From a virus (taxonomy: Duplodnaviria > Caudoviricetes): a stretch of DNA of 56,956 bases. The translations under genes were made by a program, and so were the position numbers. The notes beneath the pieces are model-generated. The model saw nothing but the letters and a program-made list of their open reading frames with translations, ran no database searches and was not told where the DNA came from. How positions within the stretch are numbered: the stretch's first letter is position 1; each line of letters opens with the position of its first letter. Shown here one piece after another: positions 1 through 44,899 of the stretch. The stretch is taken from the IMG/VR virus record IMGVR_UViG_3300036791_000660, positions 1 to 56,956 of that record. One strand, written 5' to 3'.

Positions 1-545
1 CTAGCCCACCCCCGGCACGACACGGCAGGCGCGGCTCGGACTGGCGCGACAAGGATGGCGAGGAACGCGGGGCCGGGTCAGGCAACGCATGGTCTGGCGT
101 GGCAGGCCTGTCGAGTCTTGGCATGCCGAGACTTCTCCGGGCGTGACTTCGCTGCGCGAGGCGGGGCCGGGCATGGCAGGCGTGGCATGGTTTTGCGGGG
201 TTGGGCACGACGAGCCGAGCCAAGGCATGGCTGGTGCGGCTAGGCGAGGAAGCCAAGGGATGGCCAGCAGCGGCGCGGTGAGGCCGGCCACGGCACGGCA
301 GGTGCGGCGGGGCAACCCAAGGCGCGACGGGGGAGGCTTGGCTTCCCACGGTCCGGCACGGTGAGGCAGGCAAGTCGAGGCAAGACACGATGTGACATGG
401 CACGATGCGGTTCGGCAGGCGCGGCTAGGAGTTCGCGACGAGGTAGGCAAGGCGGGGCTGGGTGCGGCAGGTCTGGCGCGTCGAGGCGAGGGTCGCGGGG
501 CGTGGCGGGGCAAGGCACGCAATCACATGGCACGGCAGGCACGAC
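1..545 (+). ncRNA. Array of degenerate GGY-NN pentamer-repeat units (putative multi-guide RNA precursor), truncated by the window start
   Basis: 5-nt periodicity (ggcgc ggctc ggact ggcgc gacaa...). Units are delimited by GGCAGG at 24, 101, 175, 297, 365, 414, 466 and 534 and by GGCTGG at 229. No credible ORF. The repeat is seen directly; RNA status is inferred. Confidence 0.8.
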
Positions 546-548
546 ATC

Positions 549-597
549 TGCCAGTTACTGTCAGGCACTACTGACGGTCTATTGCCAACTTCTGTCA
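549..597. promoter_or_regulatory. Two TGCCA-N5-TGTCA operator-like sites (549-563, 583-597)
   Basis: The motif recurs at about ten intergenic or promoter-proximal positions in the window. Confidence 0.65.
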
Positions 598-610
598 ATA
601 AGCCTATATG
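582..610 (+). promoter_or_regulatory. sigma70-type promoter
   Basis: TTGCCA-17 nt-TATATG upstream of the Gly-rich gene. Confidence 0.65.
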
Positions 611-665
611 CCAAGCTCGCCACGCACAGGCGTTGGCGGTGAACAACCTTTCAGGAGACCTTGTG

Positions 666-1457
666 ATGTTGCGGCGTAAATTGTTGATGGCCGTCCTCGG
701 AGTCGTGGCGGCTGGTGGAGCGATGACGGCGGCCGATGCCCTCGCCAAAGGTGGTGGCGGCGGTTCCGGTGGCGGTGGTTCGGGCGGCGGTGGCGGCTCG
801 GGCGGTGGTGGTTCTGGCGGAGGAGGTTCCGGTGGCGGATCAGGAGGAGGTGGCGGCGGCTCCGGCGGAGGCGGGGGTTCCGGCGGTGGTAGCGGCAGCG
901 GGGGCGGTGGCTCCGGTGGTGGCTCGGGTGGCGGCGGAAGCGGCTCGGGCGGCGGCAGCGGCGGAGGCGGCGGATCGGGCGGTGGCGGCTCGGGCGGTGG
1001 CTCTGGCGGCGGTGGTGGCGGCTCGGGCGGAGGCTCGGGCGGTGGAGGCGGCGGCTCGGGCAGCGGCGGCGGAGGCGGCTCAGGCGGCGGAGGGTCGGGC
1101 GGCGGCAGCGGCGGCGGTGGTTCGGGCGGCGGTGGTAGCGGTTCTGGTGGCGGTGGGTCTGGCGGCGGCGGTGGCGGCTCGGGTGGCGGCTCTGGCGGCA
1201 GCGGTGGCGGTTCTGGTGGTGGCGGTTCCGGTGGCGGTGGCGGTGGCGGATCGGGCTCCGGTGGCGGCGATGCTGGCGGTGGCGGTGGCGGCGGTGCTTC
1301 TGGCGGTGGGAGTGCTGGTGGCGGGTCGAGTGCTGGGTCTAGCTCCGGGTCTGGGGCTGGCGCTGGTGCCGGGGCCTCTGCCTCGGGCGCCTCGGGTCCG
1401 TCAGGAGCCGACGGCGTCAACAACGTGAACGAGTTCTTCCGTTCGCGTCGTCGGTAG
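666..1457 (+). CDS. Exported Gly/Ser-rich low-complexity protein
   Basis: AGGAG RBS. N-terminal MLRRKLLMAVLGVVAAGG...ALA signal peptide, then a long GGGGS-type tract with varied wobble bases. Confidence 0.7.
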   Translation: MLRRKLLMAVLGVVAAGGAMTAADALAKGGGGGSGGGGSGGGGGSGGGGSGGGGSGGGSGGGGGGSGGGGGSGGGSGSGGGGSGGGSGGGGSGSGGGSGGGGGSGGGGSGGGSGGGGGGSGGGSGGGGGGSGSGGGGGSGGGGSGGGSGGGGSGGGGSGSGGGGSGGGGGGSGGGSGGSGGGSGGGGSGGGGGGGSGSGGGDAGGGGGGGASGGGSAGGGSSAGSSSGSGAGAGAGASASGASGPSGADGVNNVNEFFRSRRR

Positions 1458-1483
1458 GCTTGACGAGTCTTGTCAAGGGGCTT

Positions 1484-1511
1484 GATGGTGGGACCGATTT
1501 GTCCCACCATC
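1484..1511 (+). terminator. Hairpin after the Gly-rich gene
   Basis: GATGGTGGGAC-cgattt-GTCCCACCATC, perfect 11-bp stem; no strong U tract. Confidence 0.55.
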
Positions 1512-1516
1512 TTCCC

Positions 1517-1544
1517 TTGCCAACTCCTGTCACCGCCCTATATT
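1517..1544 (+). promoter_or_regulatory. sigma70-type promoter overlapping a TGCCA-N5-TGTCA site
   Basis: TTGCCA-16 nt-TATATT; operator-like site at 1518-1532. Confidence 0.6.
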
Positions 1545-1666
1545 CAGGACATGAACTTACCCCCGCATCTTTACCACGGCACGTCGAGCAGACGATTGCG
1601 CGCCATCCTGAAGCGCGGACGGAGTCCGCGCGGCGAGCGCAAGCCCGTGAAGAAGGAGAGAGCAGC

Positions 1667-1843
1667 ATGACAATCGTTGGCGTTCAAAAGTTGGTCACTG
1701 GCCAATTCGATCTCGTCCTTCGGCTCACCGAGAAGGAAGGCCTCGATCTGGCCAGCCTGATCGTCCAGCAGCAGGAACTCACACAGTCACCCCCACCACC
1801 ACCCTCAACCGAGGGCGGCACATCAGAGGAGCCGAAGTCGTGA
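1667..1843 (+). CDS. Hypothetical protein
   Basis: AGGAGAGAGC leader before ATG; stop overlaps the next start. Confidence 0.6.
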   Translation: MTIVGVQKLVTGQFDLVLRLTEKEGLDLASLIVQQQELTQSPPPPPSTEGGTSEEPKS

Positions 1844-2052
1844 ACATCTTCGCCCGAGGCTCGGACAACGTCCGGCTCAGCCGCAAGCATCGCATCACCA
1901 TCACGTCGGCGCTCAACCTCGCCGCCGACCAGTGGCTCGAAACGGCGGCCAAGGAGACGAACAACAAGGCGACGCTGCTCGCCTTGGCCGGCGAGGCGAA
2001 GGCGCTCGCCATCCTGCTTGAACCCGATGTCGAGGAGGAGCCGCAGTCATGA
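1840..2052 (+). CDS. Hypothetical protein
   Basis: Coupled start/stop overlaps; phage-like codon usage. Confidence 0.6.
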   Translation: MNIFARGSDNVRLSRKHRITITSALNLAADQWLETAAKETNNKATLLALAGEAKALAILLEPDVEEEPQS

Positions 2053-2252
2053 GCGAGTTAGCCCACTGGACGTTCCTGCTGAACATCGTGCTCACCATAG
2101 CCAACGTCGGCCTGACGTGGCGCGCCATACGCGGCGAGAAACAGCTAATTCGCGGCCTGCTGTGGATCATCTGCAAGCGCATCAAAATGGGACAGTTCTA
2201 CTCGCCGTTCGAGAAGACCATCGTCGTCAAGGCCATCGAGTACGTCGGATGA
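2049..2252 (+). CDS. Small membrane-anchored hypothetical protein
   Basis: GGAG RBS, ATGA overlap, N-terminal hydrophobic helix. Confidence 0.55.
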   Translation: MSELAHWTFLLNIVLTIANVGLTWRAIRGEKQLIRGLLWIICKRIKMGQFYSPFEKTIVVKAIEYVG

Positions 2253-2473
2253 GATCGCTCAGACGACACACCCGGCCGCTGCGCGCCGTCACGCCGATAG
2301 CCGCCGAGCTAGGATTCCGCTTCGATGGACTGACCCGGCGCGGCCACTTCAAATGGCGCAACCGCCATGGCTTCATGGTGATCACCGGCTCGAAGTTCGA
2401 TGAGCCGCGCAGCCTCAAGAACGCGACCACGCAATTCCGGCTGGCTGTCCACAGCCAACCTGCCATAAAGTAG
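2249..2473 (+). CDS. Basic hypothetical protein
   Basis: ATGA overlap with the upstream gene. Confidence 0.5.
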   Translation: MRSLRRHTRPLRAVTPIAAELGFRFDGLTRRGHFKWRNRHGFMVITGSKFDEPRSLKNATTQFRLAVHSQPAIK

Positions 2474-2491
2474 CAATCAGGAGCACCCCCG

Positions 2492-3415
2492 ATGATCATC
2501 AGCAAGCCCGGCTTCTACAACGAAGTGCCGGAAACCGACTATCACGGCGACCCCGTGAAAGACCTGTCGCTAAGCTCGGACGTGGTCAAGCTGATGGCCC
2601 TGAAGTCGCCGCGCCACGCCAAGCACGCCCACCCGCGCCTGACCGATCAGCCCAAGAAGGACGCGCCCGACCGCGCCATGTGCATCGGCAGCGCCGCTCA
2701 CAAGAGGCTGCTCGGCCGGGGCCGCCAGATCGACGTGCTGGCCTACGACGACTATCGCAAGAACGACGCCAAGGACCAGCGCGACGCCGCACTGGCAGCC
2801 GGCAACGTGCCGGTGCTGGCCGCCGACATGGAGAAGGTCGAGGCCATGGTGAAGGCGGCCGAAGAACAGCTTGCCGAACTGGGCCACGCCGACATCTTCA
2901 CCGGCGGCCACGCCGAGGTGACGATGGTCTGGCAGGAGAGGAAGAACGGCGTGTGGTGCCGCTCGCGGCCGGACTACATCCACGACGAGGCGCGCAAGGG
3001 CGGCCACATCATCGTGCCCGAACTGAAGACGACCGAGGGCTCGGCCCATCCCGACGACTGGTCCACGACCTGCGCCGGCATGGGCCACGACTATCAGGCC
3101 TGCCTGCGTGAGCGCGGCCTGAAGGCGCTGATCCCCGGCCTCAAGAGCGTCGAGACGCTGTGGGTCGTGCTGGAGCAGAAGCCGCCCTACGGCCTGTCGC
3201 TCGTCACCATGGACAACCAGACGCGGACCGAGATCAGCGACATGGTCGCCCTCGCCATCGAGGCATGGGACGGCTGTCTGAAGACCGGCCAGTGGCCGTC
3301 CTACGAGCGCGGCGTGCTCGACGCCAAGCCGTGGCGCTCGATGTCCACCGAGCTTCGCCGGCAGGCGCTGCTCGACCGTGTCGCCCACTGGCAGCGCCCG
3401 CTGGAGAGCGCGTGA
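2492..3415 (+). CDS. PD-(D/E)XK exonuclease, RecE/ExoVIII (DUF3799)-like
   Basis: YH..LSLSS, GSAAH, CRSRPD..ELKTT and DYQA motifs; followed by an AAA gene. Confidence 0.85.
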   Translation: MIISKPGFYNEVPETDYHGDPVKDLSLSSDVVKLMALKSPRHAKHAHPRLTDQPKKDAPDRAMCIGSAAHKRLLGRGRQIDVLAYDDYRKNDAKDQRDAALAAGNVPVLAADMEKVEAMVKAAEEQLAELGHADIFTGGHAEVTMVWQERKNGVWCRSRPDYIHDEARKGGHIIVPELKTTEGSAHPDDWSTTCAGMGHDYQACLRERGLKALIPGLKSVETLWVVLEQKPPYGLSLVTMDNQTRTEISDMVALAIEAWDGCLKTGQWPSYERGVLDAKPWRSMSTELRRQALLDRVAHWQRPLESA

Positions 3416-14284: not shown

Positions 14285-14884
14285 ATGATACCGACAGAAG
14301 ACGTAGTGGCGGACACGCCCGCCCGGAAGATCGAGGCCGCCATGGCGCGCCACGGCCTCCTGATCACGGCCGAGTTCGTGCCGTACAGCCAGAGCCGCAA
14401 CAAGGACGAGGACAGGCCCTGCCTGAACTGGAAGGTCTCGCTGAAGCGCATGGCGTTCATCGGCGACACGTTCCGGCCGGGCTCGGAGCGCACCATCCTG
14501 ACGACCGACTTCTCGGCCGGCATCGCGCACTGCCCGAGCTACCGCAACAGCCGGCGCGACCAGTCGGTCGATGAGGCCGGCGCCATCGCGTGGGAGTGCG
14601 AGCACGGCCAGAGCCATGGCCTGTACCCGGCCGAAATGGGCAAGGGCTTCAAGCGGCAGGCGATCCTGCCCGACACCGCCAGCGTCATGCACTCGCTGGT
14701 GCTCGACTACGACGTGATGCGCTACCCGACCTACGAGGAGTGGGCACCCGAGGTCGGCTTCGACCCGGACAGCCGCAAGGGCGAGCGCGTCTACAACGCG
14801 GGACGCGAGATCGCGCACAAGATGTACGCCGCGCTCGGCGACAAGGTGATCGAGGACCTGCGCGCCGCCGGGGAGGACCTGTGA
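14285..14884 (+). CDS. Hypothetical phage protein
   Basis: TAGGAGAGAGC leader; YEEW..GFDPDSRKGE motif. Confidence 0.7.
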   Translation: MIPTEDVVADTPARKIEAAMARHGLLITAEFVPYSQSRNKDEDRPCLNWKVSLKRMAFIGDTFRPGSERTILTTDFSAGIAHCPSYRNSRRDQSVDEAGAIAWECEHGQSHGLYPAEMGKGFKRQAILPDTASVMHSLVLDYDVMRYPTYEEWAPEVGFDPDSRKGERVYNAGREIAHKMYAALGDKVIEDLRAAGEDL

Positions 14885-32845: not shown

Positions 32846-34534
32846 CTAGCCCTGCACCACGGAGATTTGCGAAGTCGAGGTGAAGAAGTACGACTGCGGA
32901 TCGCCGAAGATCAGGAAGGTGCCGGCGCTGGGCAGCGTGCCGATGCCGTTGATCGACACCGCGAAGGTCAGCACCGAGATGAAGGTCGGGCCGAGCACGT
33001 TCTCGACGGCGGTCTGGAACACGTCCTCCATCACCAAGACGTTGAGCGGCTGGCCGACGATCACCGAGTTCACGTAGTCGGCGAGCGCCGGGGCGGCGAG
33101 TTGGGCGATGGCGGCGGCCGAGATGAAGTTCGGCGAGTCGGTGTTCCACGTCACCGTCATCGTCACCGTCTGCTGCGGCGGCACGACGAAGTTCACCACG
33201 TAGGTGTCGGGGTAGTCGGTGATCGTGACCGCGAGGTTGCGGTTGTTGGGCGTCACCACGCCGCCCGACACGTAGGCCGGCAGGCCGGTCGAATCGAAGT
33301 TGGCGATGCCCGCCTGAAGCTGGCCGAGCACCGTCTCGGCGCCGGGATTGGTGGCCAGCGGGAAAGTGATGGTGGTGCCCGACGCGGTGGTCGCCACGAA
33401 GGTGCCGTTCCAGCCGGCCGGCGTCGAGCCCGCCAGCGCGAAGGTCGAGCCCGGCGTCACGTTGTGCGCCACCAAGGTGGTCGCCGTGGCGACGCCAGCG
33501 GCCCACGCCAGCGACGCCAACTGGTTGGCCGGATAGGCCGTGCCAAGCTGGAAAGTCTTCTCCGAGGGCACCGCGAGGATGGCGTGGTTGCCGTTGAAGC
33601 CCACCGGGTTGACGCCGGCGAGCGTGATCGGCTGGCCGACCAGATAGCCGTGGTTGAGGTCGGTCGTGACCACCGCCGGGTTGGCGTTGGTGATGTTGGT
33701 GACGCTGACCGTCGAGCCGACCAAGTTCGAGATGTCGAACAGCGCAGTGTAGATCGCGTTGGCGACATCGTAGGGATCGCCGCCGCCCACGATGATCATC
33801 CAGCCACCGGCCGGGCCGGGCTGCTGCTGGATTCCAATCAGGCGCGATTGGACTCCGGGCACGTTCTCCAACAGCGTGCGCAGGTAGCGCGGCATGCCCT
33901 GTGAGGCCGCCAGCCCCGCCTGAAGCACCCGCGCCCGGTACATGCTCTCGGTCTCGGCGTCGGTGCCGGGGACGCCGGCCTCGGGATTAACGACGGTCAG
34001 CGTGAAGCCGGTCGGCGGCGGCGTGATCAGTTGCGTCACCACCCCCGGCGGCACGCTGAAAGAGCCGGCCTGCGTGGCGAGGGCGAACAGCGGATCGCTC
34101 TGGCCGGACTGGCCGATGATGCCGCCATCCCGCAGCGCATATTGGAAGTTGCCGTCGGAGACGATGAAGCCCTTGCCGATCACGAAGCCCGGCAGGCCGG
34201 AGAACACCACCAAGACGCTGGTGTTGCTGGCCGTACCGGGAACTACGCCATAGACCTCGCCAAGCTCGGCGAGGATGAAGGCGTTGCAGCCGAACGGCGT
34301 CAGCGAGTTGACGGTCTCGACGCGCGCCAGATCGGCCAGCACCAGCGACTGCACGTCGGTGCTGACGATGTCCTCGACCAGCGAGCCCGGCAAATTTCCG
34401 CTGAAACCCGGATTCGTCGCCGACACGCCGGACACCACCTCCTCGCGCAGCGTGAGAGGCGGCGTCGGCACCAGCCCGGCCGGGCCGATGACAGTCGGAA
34501 GTTCGCTCCCCGATGGCGGGATCGGATCGGCCAT
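32846..34534 (-). CDS. Baseplate J-like protein
   Basis: NLPGSLVEDI, AETESMYRARVLQA and GGGDPYDVA.AI motifs; synteny. Confidence 0.8.
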   Translation of the reverse strand: MADPIPPSGSELPTVIGPAGLVPTPPLTLREEVVSGVSATNPGFSGNLPGSLVEDIVSTDVQSLVLADLARVETVNSLTPFGCNAFILAELGEVYGVVPGTASNTSVLVVFSGLPGFVIGKGFIVSDGNFQYALRDGGIIGQSGQSDPLFALATQAGSFSVPPGVVTQLITPPPTGFTLTVVNPEAGVPGTDAETESMYRARVLQAGLAASQGMPRYLRTLLENVPGVQSRLIGIQQQPGPAGGWMIIVGGGDPYDVANAIYTALFDISNLVGSTVSVTNITNANPAVVTTDLNHGYLVGQPITLAGVNPVGFNGNHAILAVPSEKTFQLGTAYPANQLASLAWAAGVATATTLVAHNVTPGSTFALAGSTPAGWNGTFVATTASGTTITFPLATNPGAETVLGQLQAGIANFDSTGLPAYVSGGVVTPNNRNLAVTITDYPDTYVVNFVVPPQQTVTMTVTWNTDSPNFISAAAIAQLAAPALADYVNSVIVGQPLNVLVMEDVFQTAVENVLGPTFISVLTFAVSINGIGTLPSAGTFLIFGDPQSYFFTSTSQISVVQG

Positions 34535-34569
34535 GGACAATACCTGTCAATTCGTGTTTGGTGGGTGAA

Positions 34570-34651
34570 GCCGCGCCACGGCAAGTCCCGGCGGGGCTAG
34601 GCACGTCGAGGCAAGGTCTGGCCCGGCGGGGTTCGGCAAGGCACGGCAGGC
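34570..34651 (+). ncRNA. Stand-alone GGY-NN repeat cassette A (putative guide RNA)
   Basis: 15 in-phase pentamers ending GGCAGGC; intergenic and antisense to the late genes. Confidence 0.8.
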
Positions 34652-35715: not shown

Positions 35716-36849
35716 TCAGAGGGTGGTGCCCTGCTGGACCGGCGGCGCGTCCTGCTTGGTCAGCGCGAACAGGTCGAAGGCCGTGGTCCACGCCTCGCCG
35801 GTGGCCTGCCGGAAGCGGCCGTTGTGGTGCATCTCCTGCACCCGCCAGACGCCTTGGAAGACCGACTTGTCGCGCGACGGCGTCTGGATCGCGGCGATGC
35901 CGGCGGCCTTGGGGTTCGGCGTGGTCGTGTAGGGCTGTTGCAATTCCGTCGGCAGCTTCACGAAGTCGAGGCACTGGATGTCGCCGCGCATCATGGTGAT
36001 GATGCTGATCGTGTAGGCGTTCTTCCATGCCGGCTGGCCGATCAGGTCGTTGAACACGATCTGCTTCGGCTTATCGACGCTGCTGCCGCCGGTCGGCGAC
36101 TCGTTCTGGGCGGCGTCGCTGACATAGATCGTCTTATCCTGCGTGAGGAACTGCACGCCGTAGTAGGGCGAGCCGTTGACGCCCTTCAGGCTGGAGAACG
36201 GACTGCCGGGCAGGGTGCCGTTGGTGTACTTCCTGATCCAGTCGCCCATCTCCGACAGGTTCTGGGCCTGATGGAGGACTTGCCCCGGTGTCTGGAGGTC
36301 GTCGCTGACCTTGCCTTTCACCGTGTACGCACCCGCGCCATAGGTGCCATCGACCATCTGCCGGATCGCGCCGACGAAGTCGAAACCGGGACTCCAGTTG
36401 AAGGTCAGCGGCTGGCCGACGAAGCTCTTGGGGTCGATGCTGTCGGCGATCAGCGGCACGATGGTGAAGTCGATGAAGGTCTGGTTGCCGACCCAGTTGC
36501 CCGAGCTTTGCCAGATCGTGCCCTTGACCAAGAGGTCGGGCAGGTACTGGAGCGACAGCGGAAAGTCGCCCTTGGTCATGCCGGCCCAGATCGAGATGGT
36601 CGCGCCTTGCAGGTCGGTGTCCTGCGCCACCTCCCGAATATCGACGCCATAGATGCGAATCCGTCCGCCTTGGCGCGGCAGGTCGTAGGTAAAGACCGGC
36701 AGGTCGATCACGATGTCGAGCGCCGACGAGTTCGGGCTGCCGTTGATCACCGAGGTGTAGGACGCATCCTTGACGCTGGCGGGAAGCGACGACGACTGCC
36801 AGACCTCGGTCTGGCCGTGCTTGGTTATCGCAATTTTGTAATATCTCAC
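35716..36849 (-). CDS. Baseplate hub protein
   Basis: GTG start overlapping the upstream stop; DLIGQPAW, MRGDI and H.GRFRQ..W.T motifs; synteny. Confidence 0.7.
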   Translation of the reverse strand: MRYYKIAITKHGQTEVWQSSSLPASVKDASYTSVINGSPNSSALDIVIDLPVFTYDLPRQGGRIRIYGVDIREVAQDTDLQGATISIWAGMTKGDFPLSLQYLPDLLVKGTIWQSSGNWVGNQTFIDFTIVPLIADSIDPKSFVGQPLTFNWSPGFDFVGAIRQMVDGTYGAGAYTVKGKVSDDLQTPGQVLHQAQNLSEMGDWIRKYTNGTLPGSPFSSLKGVNGSPYYGVQFLTQDKTIYVSDAAQNESPTGGSSVDKPKQIVFNDLIGQPAWKNAYTISIITMMRGDIQCLDFVKLPTELQQPYTTTPNPKAAGIAAIQTPSRDKSVFQGVWRVQEMHHNGRFRQATGEAWTTAFDLFALTKQDAPPVQQGTTL

Positions 36850-37340
36850 GGGCTGATCTCGAACTGGTTGTTGGGCAGCCGGTAGATCAGCGAAGACTCG
36901 AAGAACGGCTTGGCGAGATCGAGCATGGCCGAGATCGTCCCGAGCAGAGTCGCTTGGCCGGGATTGGCCGCCAGTTGGTACTGGAAGGTGGTCGGGCCGG
37001 TGATGAAGACCATCGCGTCGGCCACGTTGTAGGCATCGGGCAGGCAGCCGGCGATGGTGAGCCTGAAGGTGTCGCCGATGCGCAGGTCCTGCGGCACCTC
37101 GGTGGTGCCCGAGACGCGGCCGTTGGCCCACGCCAGCGTCTGAATCTGCAGCCCGGTGCGCGTGCCGGTGAGCGCGCGATGGAAGATCAGGTTGCCGCCG
37201 AGGTCTTGCAGCGTGAGATACCAGCGCTGGCCGAAGATGTTCCACGTCACGCTGGCCGAGTAGACCTGCCCGTCGAGCGTCGGGTTGAAGGCGAACGGCG
37301 GGGCGCCGGGGCCGGGCTGGAAGTCGATGATCGTGGCCAT
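36846..37340 (-). CDS. Baseplate protein with an inserted beta module
   Basis: F.F.PTLDG..Y...VTWNIFGQRWY. Confidence 0.65.
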   Translation of the reverse strand: MATIIDFQPGPGAPPFAFNPTLDGQVYSASVTWNIFGQRWYLTLQDLGGNLIFHRALTGTRTGLQIQTLAWANGRVSGTTEVPQDLRIGDTFRLTIAGCLPDAYNVADAMVFITGPTTFQYQLAANPGQATLLGTISAMLDLAKPFFESSLIYRLPNNQFEISP

Positions 37341-41358: not shown

Positions 41359-43008
41359 CTACGCCGCCGCGACGAAGTCGGTGACGTTGATGTGAAAGAT
41401 GATGTGCTCGAAGCCCCGCGCCGGCGTGTAGACCATGGTCAGCCCGCCGTACTTGCCGATCTTGTAGTCGCCGGGGTTCTTCGACAGGTACGAGGTGAAG
41501 GGGTCGGCATCGACCGCCACCTGCCCGGCGTAGAGGCCCTTGTTCACGTTGATGATGAACTGGTCCTCGGGCAGCGTGAGCGGGATCACCCGGCCGATGG
41601 CGAGGCCGACCGAGATCGCGGTGGCCCCGGTCGAGGCGGCGACCGCCAGCAGGCGGTTGATGCCGTCCTGATTGTAGTAGAGCGGGTTCACCGTGGTGTT
41701 GCTGCCATTGATGATGGCGTTGCTGATGTTCAGGTCGATGTTGATCTGCATCCAATCGACGGAATACCAGTAGTTGAACGGCCGGGCGTCCAGCGTGTGG
41801 CCGAACTTCAGGATGTTGTCGCTGATGCCGCCCTCGGCGCCGAAGCCGACGATGTTGATGCTGGCCGCCTCCAGTGCGTCCATCACCGCTTGGTTGCCCG
41901 GTGACGGGAACGTCGTGACGCCGAACAGGAACGAGTAGCTGTAGGGCGGCACGCGGCTCGTGGAGGACGGGCTGTAGTTCAGCGTCACCCACCACGCGGC
42001 GGCCATCGAGAACTCGGTCGGCGGCACGCCGGCTGACGGATAGACCTGCTGTTGCAGGAAGCCCAGCGTGGTCTCTGCCCCCGGATTGGCGTCGAGCGCG
42101 TAGACCAGCGCCGTGCCGGTGGTGCCGGGTTGGGCGACGAAGGTGCCGTTGTAGGCCGCCGGCACCATGCCGATCACGGTGAAGGTCTGGCCGGGCTTGA
42201 CGGTGTGGTTGGTGGTGGTCTGCAGCGTGACCAGTCCGGCCGACCACGCGGCGCTGACGATGGCGTTGCGCGGCCACGCGCCGTAGCTCGGGGCCTCGAT
42301 CAGGGCGACCACGTCCTTCATCAGCGGCGTGTACGCGGTGTAGCTGCCGAGCGTGGTGGTGACGAAGAAGTAGGTCTTGCCGGTCGGGCTCTCGAACTGG
42401 GCGATCAGCGACAGGAACTCCGGCACCCCGTCCCATTCGCGCGGCACGAGGTAGCTGTAGAACATCTGCGCGTTGTCGTTCATGAACTGCTGGAGGTTGG
42501 CGACGCCCTGCGCCGGCGTGCCAGCCCCCAGTTCGAGCACGTAGCAGCCCTGCTGGAAGCCCTGCGCGAAGAACGTGTTCACCATCGCCTGAAGCTCGCC
42601 GGCGGCCGGCGACGTGAAGGTGCCGACTGTCGTCACCGTGCCCGGATTGGTGGCGAGGTAGTAGGTGAAGGACGAGGCACCGCTGGCCTGTGCCATGAAC
42701 TGGCCGTTGTACTGGGCCGGCACGACGCCCGCGATGGTCACCGGGAACAGGTCGCCGATCTCTGCGCCATGCGGCAGCGTGGTGTTGACCGTCACCTGCC
42801 CGCCATAGGCGGCGCTCCAAGCGAGCGAGGCCATGGCGGCCGGTGGCGCGATGATGTTGGTGAGGTCGGACGGCTGCTGAAGCAGCGTCGTGGAGCCGAC
42901 CGGCAGGACGGTGCCGCCTTGGCTCAGCATCGCTCCCATCTTCTGGAGCGTGTTGGGCGTCGGGGCCTGCGTCTGCGTGACATCGACAAGGACAATGGGA
43001 TTCGCCAT
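41359..43008 (-). CDS. Tail sheath protein
   Basis: FNYWYSVDWMQIN..SNAIINGSN..NPLYYNQDGINRL. Confidence 0.8.
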   Translation of the reverse strand: MANPIVLVDVTQTQAPTPNTLQKMGAMLSQGGTVLPVGSTTLLQQPSDLTNIIAPPAAMASLAWSAAYGGQVTVNTTLPHGAEIGDLFPVTIAGVVPAQYNGQFMAQASGASSFTYYLATNPGTVTTVGTFTSPAAGELQAMVNTFFAQGFQQGCYVLELGAGTPAQGVANLQQFMNDNAQMFYSYLVPREWDGVPEFLSLIAQFESPTGKTYFFVTTTLGSYTAYTPLMKDVVALIEAPSYGAWPRNAIVSAAWSAGLVTLQTTTNHTVKPGQTFTVIGMVPAAYNGTFVAQPGTTGTALVYALDANPGAETTLGFLQQQVYPSAGVPPTEFSMAAAWWVTLNYSPSSTSRVPPYSYSFLFGVTTFPSPGNQAVMDALEAASINIVGFGAEGGISDNILKFGHTLDARPFNYWYSVDWMQINIDLNISNAIINGSNTTVNPLYYNQDGINRLLAVAASTGATAISVGLAIGRVIPLTLPEDQFIINVNKGLYAGQVAVDADPFTSYLSKNPGDYKIGKYGGLTMVYTPARGFEHIIFHINVTDFVAAA

Positions 43009-44720: not shown

Positions 44721-44768
44721 CACTGCACCTCATTGACAAATGTTGGCGGATGCGGTCAGTCGTCGGCA

Positions 44769-44899
44769 GCCACGGCCAGTCGCGGGATGGCAAGGCCTGT
44801 CACGGCAGCGCTAGGCAGCGCCCGTCGTGGCTCGCCACGGCAAGGCGAGTCGGGGAAGGCACGGCACGGGGAGGGACGGCTCAGCGATGGGCCGTCCCT
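44769..44899 (+). ncRNA. Stand-alone GGY-NN repeat cassette C (putative guide RNA) with 3' hairpin
   Basis: 17 in-phase pentamers (44769-44853), a short tail, and an AGGGACGGC...GCCGTCCCT hairpin; TTGACA at 44733. Confidence 0.8.

Follow-up and report, generated by a model that had tools for sequence, protein, structure and literature searches.

What do the short repeats at the left end of this phage genome encode, and at what might the first complete guide among them be directed? The window, by which we mean the whole stretch of DNA analysed, is a single virus contig of 56,956 bp with 65.7% GC. The original prediction, made from the letters and their open reading frames, held that the first array unit spells in its variable dinucleotides the recognition helix of an XRE-family helix-turn-helix (HTH) protein, that this spelling is compatible with the peptide A-S-L-A-N-I-E-K-G-R-Q-N-I-L-V, and that the target would be a prophage repressor or a defence-island regulator.

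The repeats resemble the vrRNAs of VIPR, which was first described in 2026. As set out in the text of one preprint (bioRxiv 10.64898/2026.04.26.720920), a vrRNA consists of 9-16 GGY/NN repeats, its NN letters pair with DNA while one base, mostly at a wobble position, is skipped between dinucleotides, and a natural target is accepted at an NN match of at least 80% without gaps. An array of this type is further expected to lie beside a vipr (RAMP) gene and to give small RNAs that co-purify with Vipr. The VIPR preprints further describe a coat in which GGY is hidden and both variable bases are free to pair, with one Vipr protomer per repeat (bioRxiv 10.64898/2026.04.26.720927), and a Vipr-vrRNA complex that binds double-stranded DNA and blocks transcription on either strand (10.64898/2026.04.26.720920, 10.64898/2026.04.26.720927). 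Satellites, prophage switches, REP elements and other VIPR systems are the reported natural targets.

A phage genome with GGCNN arrays

The - strand of the window is a myovirus-type late region, and the early region on the + strand carries an exonuclease VIII-like gene and an AAA/recombinase-like gene (Table 1). The closest relatives of the capsid protein lie in prophage-like loci of Alphaproteobacteria MAGs (63-67% identity). One capsid relative with 64% identity (L003) bears the title Candidatus Limnocylindrus, and further relatives occur in 2 Saccharibacter genomes (43%) and in enterobacterial myoviruses (45-57%). None of the relatives collected through the exonuclease gene (1 locus) or the capsid gene (7 loci) contains arrays. 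The record yielded neither an HTH_3 gene nor a tyrosine integrase. It is listed as linear in IMG/VR, and CheckV puts its completeness at 100, a value that may be too high because no terminase or portal like those of its relatives, namely resembling those of Pantoea phage PdC23, was found in it.

Several features of the genome deserve mention in their own right. A 1614-aa ORF (50808-55652, - strand) occupies the position of the relatives' portal/minor head genes; it has a weak PHROG match only (phrog_2859) and no Pfam family. The first ORF after the main array (666-1457, + strand) encodes a signal-peptide-like N-terminus followed by ~230 residues that are almost all Gly or Ser. No Pfam family matches it, its DNA consists almost entirely of GGY and TCN/AGC triplets, and the Logan contigs over it show the numerous joints and high depth typical of repeats. 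A promoter-like motif, TTGCCAAC-N16-TATAT, is present in two copies at the start of the early region (584-612 and 1517-1544), and the consensus scan called the second copy only.

Table 1. Coordinates of the arrays, guides, 4-nt units, hairpins and late genes in the window
Feature	Position	Strand	Remarks
Main array	14..545	+	~112 GGCNN units, vrRNA-type, phase-locked
G0 (partial)	14-27	+	GGCA-delimited
G1	28-104	+	GGCA-delimited, 16 units
GGAT, 4-nt unit of G1	53..56	+	AT pairs in phase with target Ile codon ATA
GGAA, 4-nt unit of G1	62..65	+	sole G1 unit mismatched, AA vs GT (Val)
GGCA, 4-nt unit of G1	101..104	+	G1 end; CA pairs with His codon CAC
G2	105-178	+	GGCA-delimited
G3	179-300	+	GGCA-delimited
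G4	301-368	+	GGCA-delimited
G5	369-417	+	GGCA-delimited
G6	418-469	+	GGCA-delimited
G7	470-537	+	GGCA-delimited
Hairpin	556..582	+	directly 3' of main array, 5' of the next gene's promoter-like TTGCCA..TATATG
Array A	34575..34648	+	15 units, ends GGCAC GGCA; in gap between - strand late genes
Array B	44766..44901	+	~23 units, repeats 44766-44876, then hairpin 44870-44901
Array C	49560..49646	+	11-12 units, repeats 49560-49612, then hairpin 49623-49646
Baseplate wedge	32846-34540	-	late region
Baseplate hub	35716-37245	-	late region
Tail sheath	41359-43008	-	late region
Major capsid	46872-47894	-	late region

The main array keeps a 5-nt phase, with a lag-5 identity of 0.505 over positions 1-540 compared with 0.236 in a control stretch (2000-2540). 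Segmentation of positions 1-560 gave 115 units, 94 of them 5 nt and 17 of them 4 nt long. Their heads are GGC (56), GGT (13), GGA (5) and, for the remainder, one-letter variants; degenerate heads such as GAC, CGC, GTC and GCC are frequent. Units of 4 nt that read GGCA partition the array into guides of 10-25 units each, where a vrRNA array needs at least 4 units and a guide typically has 9-16. All closed guides (G1-G7), and likewise array A of the late region, terminate in GGCA, with GGCAC GGCA as the ending in G3, G7 and A. The NN positions are hypervariable and comprise 14 distinct dinucleotides over all guides.

Positions 538-600, which include the hairpin 3' of the main array, fold at -18.7 kcal/mol (z -2.4). 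Consensus scans called no promoters or terminators at the arrays; no promoter is visible for the main array because the contig has only 13 nt upstream of it. A search of positions 1-3000 against Rfam at E ≤ 1 returned 0 matches, and an exact 57-nt stretch 3' of the main array had no match in viral_contigs. A second soil run carries positions 137-390 with 5 differences in 254 letters, and no RNA run is listed as containing positions 1-3000. Readings of the repeats as TRAP-like RNA-binding sites, a centromere/pac site, a telomere-like end or G-quadruplexes were abandoned after the VIPR check.

Three shorter, solitary GGCNN arrays (A, B and C) lie on the + strand in intergenic gaps of the late operon, to which they are antisense. 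Arrays B and C end in hairpins (-28.1 kcal/mol, z -3.6, and -23.7 kcal/mol, z -3.2, respectively) and not in GGCA. No targets of the three arrays were found in the five target loci discussed below (L012-L016), and the exact patterns of guide G2 and array A gave 0 matches in viral_contigs. Array C (49560) is flanked by two ORFs that correspond to the N- and C-terminal halves of a single PHROG, phrog_6216 (48546-50623, - strand). Of these two, the N-terminal ORF alone had a match in the Nudix-domain gene of PdC23 (residues 3-286 of 553). To judge by this layout, array C may be an insertion within a head-module gene or between its parts.

Guide G1 and its matching site

The letters originally read for unit 1 at positions 28-100, GC TC CT GC AA AT GA AA GG CG CA AA AT CT GT, are correct. 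From position 28 onward, the units are GGCGC GGCTC GGACT GGCGC GACAA GGAT GGCGA GGAA CGCGG GGCCG GGTCA GGCAA CGCAT GGTCT GGCGT. The closing GGCA pairs with the target as well (CA against a His codon), so the corrected end of the guide is position 104 and G1 has 16 units. Its NN letters read A S L A N/K I/M D/E N/K G R H/Q N/K I/M L V H/Q, with two residues possible at 8 of the 16 positions.

For the search, the NN letters of unit 1 were written as NN-x-NN-x with the two 4-nt units left free, which gives 26 specified letters. Across the metagenome collection, this pattern matches exactly at a single site, L012 3427-3470, and the gapped unit-1 pattern has no match in viral_contigs. About 5e-4 chance sites are expected for 26 letters if ~1e12 bases and both strands are assumed, a figure that is only indicative given that the size of the collection is unstated. 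The site reads GCG TCT CTC GCT AAT ATA GAG GTG GGA CGC CAG AAA ATT CTC GTG and encodes ASLANIEVGRQKILV in frame; the match lies in frame in a 119-aa ORF, with the peptide ISRASLANIEVGRQKILVHQL. Every skipped base is codon position 3 (wobble) on the sense strand of the target. When the comparison is extended to the whole of G1 and the capH-type codons at L012 3427-3474 (ASLANIEVGRQKILVH, in frame with G1), 30 of 32 letters (94%) and 15 of 16 dinucleotides match over 16 units. The pattern leaves out six letters, those of the closing GGCA and of both unconstrained 4-nt units, and four of them match too.

The prediction of an XRE-family recognition helix was borne out, as the sole exact match lies in an HTH_3 gene and in codon phase, rather than in a non-HTH gene or out of phase. 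The predicted peptide stood in part: the target helix is present in frame, and residue 8 is V, not K. A similar qualification applies to the proposal that 4-nt units be read as GG-NN. Two of the three such units in G1 pair in phase, namely GGAT (AT, for Ile), whose match is independent of the search because its position was left free (N) in the pattern, and GGCA; at GGAA the proposal fails, with AA against GT (Val). This mismatch falls on the single variable residue of the family motif (V/T/N/S/R/I). That the match ends right after GGCA fits a guide boundary at this position.

G1 scores 28 on L012, against a best score of 14 in 80 unit-order shuffles (20 rounds x 4 arrays). Nine other guides reach 50-75% in L012-L016, none above shuffle level. 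In the phage's own genome, the best site of G1 matches 19 of 32 letters and the other guides stay at ≤70%, compared with the ≥80% criterion for a target. The absence of a match from the window had also been noted correctly, with 0 matches of the gapped pattern at ≤3 mismatches. The search that had been proposed as a check, of alphaproteobacterial genomes, came back empty at ≤3 mismatches (0/5 and 0/401). The peptide reading of G1 is far beyond chance.

The proposed target gene, its family and its neighbours

The target ORF matches Pfam HTH_3 over residues 18-68 (E 8.6e-9, 35.8 bits, cut-off 23), and its best PADLOC model is capH (E 7.4e-9). G1 covers residues 37-52, which form the recognition helix and the following turn. 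Directly downstream of capH in L012 is a gene for a putative M78 (ImmA/IrrE-like) metallopeptidase, which matches Peptidase_M78 (E 3.3e-21) and PADLOC capP (E 2.6e-30), and the gene after capP, the third in this row, encodes an SbcB-like exonuclease. Divergent upstream genes comprise a Prok-E2_E-like gene (a weak match of 20.1 bits, below the cut-off of 25), a JAB+ThiF(E1) gene (ThiF E 9.8e-38) and a DUF6527 gene. By these domain matches, the target is a predicted capH-type repressor paired with a capP-type M78 peptidase. Between the two kinds of target originally proposed, the defence-island regulator fits because a capP-type gene lies next to the target and E2-like and JAB+ThiF(E1) genes diverge from it.

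Homologues of the target fall into 67 clusters at E ≤ 0.001, 2 of which are named Bradyrhizobium by source. All 67 carry SRA[ST][LI]A[NS][IMV]E.GRQ..[LPQ][VL]H or a close variant. Compatibility with G1 extends to 15 of 16 residues in 14 clusters, to 14 residues in 18, to 13 in 31 and to 12 in 4; none of the 67 clusters fits all 16 residues.

We also surveyed 301 genomes that share an order with G001, a MAG whose title is uncultured Rhizobiales bacterium. A homologue is present in four of them, at 40-48% protein identity. At the homologous site, G1 matches 26, 27, 28 and 28 of 32 letters (81-88%) in these genomes, on the sense strand and in frame in every case, and the next-best G1 sites in the same four loci reach 17-20. 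Peptidase_M78 is encoded directly downstream in all four (L013-L016; E 1.8e-23 to 4.8e-27) and thus in 5/5 loci when L012 is included. The divergent, facing genes encode Prok-E2_E in L013, Patatin in L014, Multiubiquitin and Prok-E2_E in L015 and an SMODS/DncV-like protein in L016. Judged from these genes, the neighbours of family members appear to be CBASS-like and ubiquitin-like predicted defence operons.

In 3 of the 5 loci, the gene after capH-capP encodes a DEDDh-type exonuclease (L012 4203-5612, L014 2388-3302 and L016 2383-3204). The L012 exonuclease is the SbcB-like one (PADLOC 'RTasSbcB', E 5.5e-82), and those of L014 and L016 were called by eye from an N-terminus resembling that of L012. 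This arrangement suggests that capH, capP and the exonuclease gene form a conserved three-gene module.

Possible action, alternatives and known systems

Taken together, these results make it probable that positions 28-104 constitute a VIPR-type guide directed at capH-type genes. In the mechanism that we propose, the main array would be transcribed into RNA that is cleaved at or close to its GGCA units, and G1 would be loaded onto and coated by a Vipr. The guide would then pair with the capH template strand, to which it is complementary across the HTH recognition-helix codons (ASLANIE.GRQKILVH). A Vipr-vrRNA roadblock ~110-155 bp inside capH would turn off transcription of the capH-capP operon, which is predicted to control the adjacent CBASS-like or ubiquitin-like defence operons, and in some loci it would also silence the downstream SbcB-like exonuclease gene. 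One guide could cover many diverged family members, given that the code reads codon positions 1 and 2 alone and that the helix hardly varies.

The net effect could be either of two: loss of CapP would blunt the induction of defence triggered by DNA damage, or loss of CapH would derepress defence. Blunted induction would suit a phage that, like this one, shows no lysogeny genes. How the phage would benefit is not evident, because silencing of the repressor alone would derepress defence. Our fullest reading is that a lytic soil phage carries a VIPR anti-defence guide against the CapH helix, which hits capH-capP of many Rhizobiales immune operons (CBASS, ubiquitin-like and others) and so blocks DNA-damage-triggered immunity; we advance it tentatively and give it somewhat less than even weight.

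A Vipr for the array would be either encoded beyond the left contig end or supplied in trans. Searches of the 56,956-bp record by phmmer with the SUSP1 Vipr, by two profiles, by hhalign and by motif regexes found no Vipr homologue. The best hmmsearch E values over 521 six-frame ORFs were 0.17 with the first profile, built from 120 homologues, and 1.2 with the broader one, built from 83 viral Viprs. None of 84 gene products exceeded an hhalign probability of 4.1%, compared with 98.5% for gp49 of Mycobacterium phage Donkeykong, which served as positive control, and the window ORFs showed no similarity to 80 Vipr loci. ORF 14285-14884 was considered and rejected as a Vipr: it has a short MRY.P.YEEW stretch like the thumb motif and no G-loop, its hhalign value is 4.1%, and its structural neighbours in the Atlas are viral proteins without a name. 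Contigs of the run that contains the sequence extend only 31 nt to the left of window position 1.

The phage could instead carry guides only, in which case its orphan vrRNAs would be loaded onto a Vipr from another element, co-resident or co-infecting, and would either redirect this Vipr to capH-type loci as decoys or put it to use for the phage itself. We consider this possible, if on balance unlikely. VIPR-null phages and satellites carrying vrRNAs are described in a preprint (bioRxiv 10.64898/2026.10.15.759431), and the lack of a Vipr homologue in a linear record with a CheckV completeness of 100, together with the three further arrays dispersed in the late region, is consistent with such a lifestyle. 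However, only 13 nt separate the main array from the contig end, just where a flanking vipr would be lost, and the terminase and portal that were not found suggest that completeness is perhaps overestimated. Moreover, 30 of 31 Vipr loci with >58% GC have GGY arrays on the vipr strand (within ~12 kb around the gene), and most arrays in these high-GC loci begin within a few hundred bp of vipr.

A second alternative concerns the target, which might be an ImmR/ImmA-type repressor of a competing prophage, ICE or plasmid, so that silencing would force the mobilisation or induction of the rival. Farther along, L012 encodes a relaxase (E 3.3e-24) and a NikA-like protein, and the target therefore sits on a mobilisable element. 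As described in the text of bioRxiv 10.1101/2022.04.27.489752, pairs of XRE and M78 proteins regulate CBASS and other immune operons and control mobile elements too, and lysis-lysogeny regulators are among the published VIPR targets, with lambda cI shown (10.64898/2026.04.26.720920). Against this, in all five loci the genes opposite the XRE-M78 pair are of defence type (E2/E1/JAB, Multiubiquitin, Patatin, SMODS), and no phage structural or integrase genes are adjacent to this pair within the 3.2-8.3 kb stretches. We therefore regard a rival element as an improbable target.

Less likely still is a decaying or silent relic that has gone out of use. The many degenerate heads, the 17 of 115 units with 4 nt and the missing vipr gene would be expected of one, yet in G1 all but one of the 16 dinucleotides still fit a conserved target, comparable degeneracy occurs in arrays beside intact vipr genes (Donkeykong and locus L017), and positions 137-390 are kept in the second soil run with the few differences given above. 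A chance spelling of a common HTH motif by a GC-rich repeat is hardly credible: XRE genes are very common, half of the peptide positions are ambiguous and the collection size is unstated, but the match is exact over 26 letters and continues into those left out of the pattern, the shuffles and the nine sister guides fall far behind it, and the gene family, helix and codon phase had been predicted beforehand.

If a VIPR-type guide against capH-type regulators is indeed what G1 represents, it would be the first natural VIPR guide against a host immune regulator rather than a rival virus, and 4-nt GG-NN units would work within the code. The target family was predicted from raw guide sequence, and the prediction held. 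An active guide would mean that phages are able to direct programmable silencing against the regulatory layer of bacterial immunity, where the wobble-skipping code would give a single guide reach over a whole diverged gene family. The range of VIPR would also extend to soil Alphaproteobacteria phages, with arrays partly made of 4-nt units.

Among known systems, VIPR type II (Escherichia phage SUSP1 and a Pseudomonas fulva prophage) shares with the main array tandem GGY-NN repeats, a 1-nt skip on wobble positions, a regulator as target, the lack of a self-target and carriage by a phage. In the SUSP1 locus, a 195-aa Vipr (agp039) has YNNGG arrays in both flanking gaps. In contrast, the array studied here has no vipr in the record, forms one ~530-nt block without pseudoknot tails, uses GGC rather than GGT and 4-nt GGCA dividers, pairs through 4-nt GG-NN units in phase and appears to target a capH-type regulator of defence operons. 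The word 'CapH' occurs 0 times in the text of 10.64898/2026.04.26.720920 and 10.64898/2026.10.15.759431, whose supplements may list such targets or this type of array.

The orphan ('solo') vrRNAs described in part of 10.64898/2026.10.15.759431 resemble the window in that no vipr lies on the element and a conserved coding target is aligned on its wobble positions. They differ in coming from Enterobacteriaceae and in their reported targets, which comprise REP elements, vipr genes, vrRNAs and satellite genes but no immune regulators; the absence of vipr here may, moreover, be a mere matter of the contig end.

The closest likeness in array style is found in Donkeykong, whose gp49 is a Vipr homologue (profile E 2.9e-15; hhalign 98.5%), and in the IMG/VR locus L017. 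Both have GGCNN arrays with guides of ~10-16 units closed by GGCAY GGCA and with degenerate heads, and gp48 of Donkeykong shares with the main array the 4-nt GGCA boundaries and the GGCAC GACAT GGCA junctions. Both of these arrays adjoin a Vipr homologue, unlike the window array, which has none in the record. The legend of Fig. S18 in 10.64898/2026.04.26.720920 mentions staggered arrays with guides that overlap by 1 nt, and because the arrays of Donkeykong and L017 fit this description, we assign the window array, on its anatomy, to what are probably tail-less 'staggered' vrRNA arrays. As a separate observation, the 'gp48' CDS of Donkeykong (L011 3793-4892) is a GGCNN vrRNA array, and public annotation lists gp48 and gp49 as hypothetical proteins. 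Guides at three other Vipr loci (L072 5480-7200, L074 5450-6010 and L096 5450-6010) are separated by modules with a T-arm-like GGTTCGA..CC, one of which ARAGORN calls 'tRNA-Pro' (L074 5842-5934); such tRNA-like tails might serve processing.

On the side of the target, the CapH/CapP pair, as described in part of 10.1101/2022.04.27.489752, resembles the genes identified here in combining an XRE HTH protein with an M78 peptidase and in diverging from CBASS-like or ubiquitin-like operons. Cleavage of the repressor by the peptidase on DNA damage is a further mark of CapH/CapP-type regulators. This likeness concerns the predicted target and not the element in the window. The kind of array, VIPR vrRNA, is known, and the class of target appears to be new.
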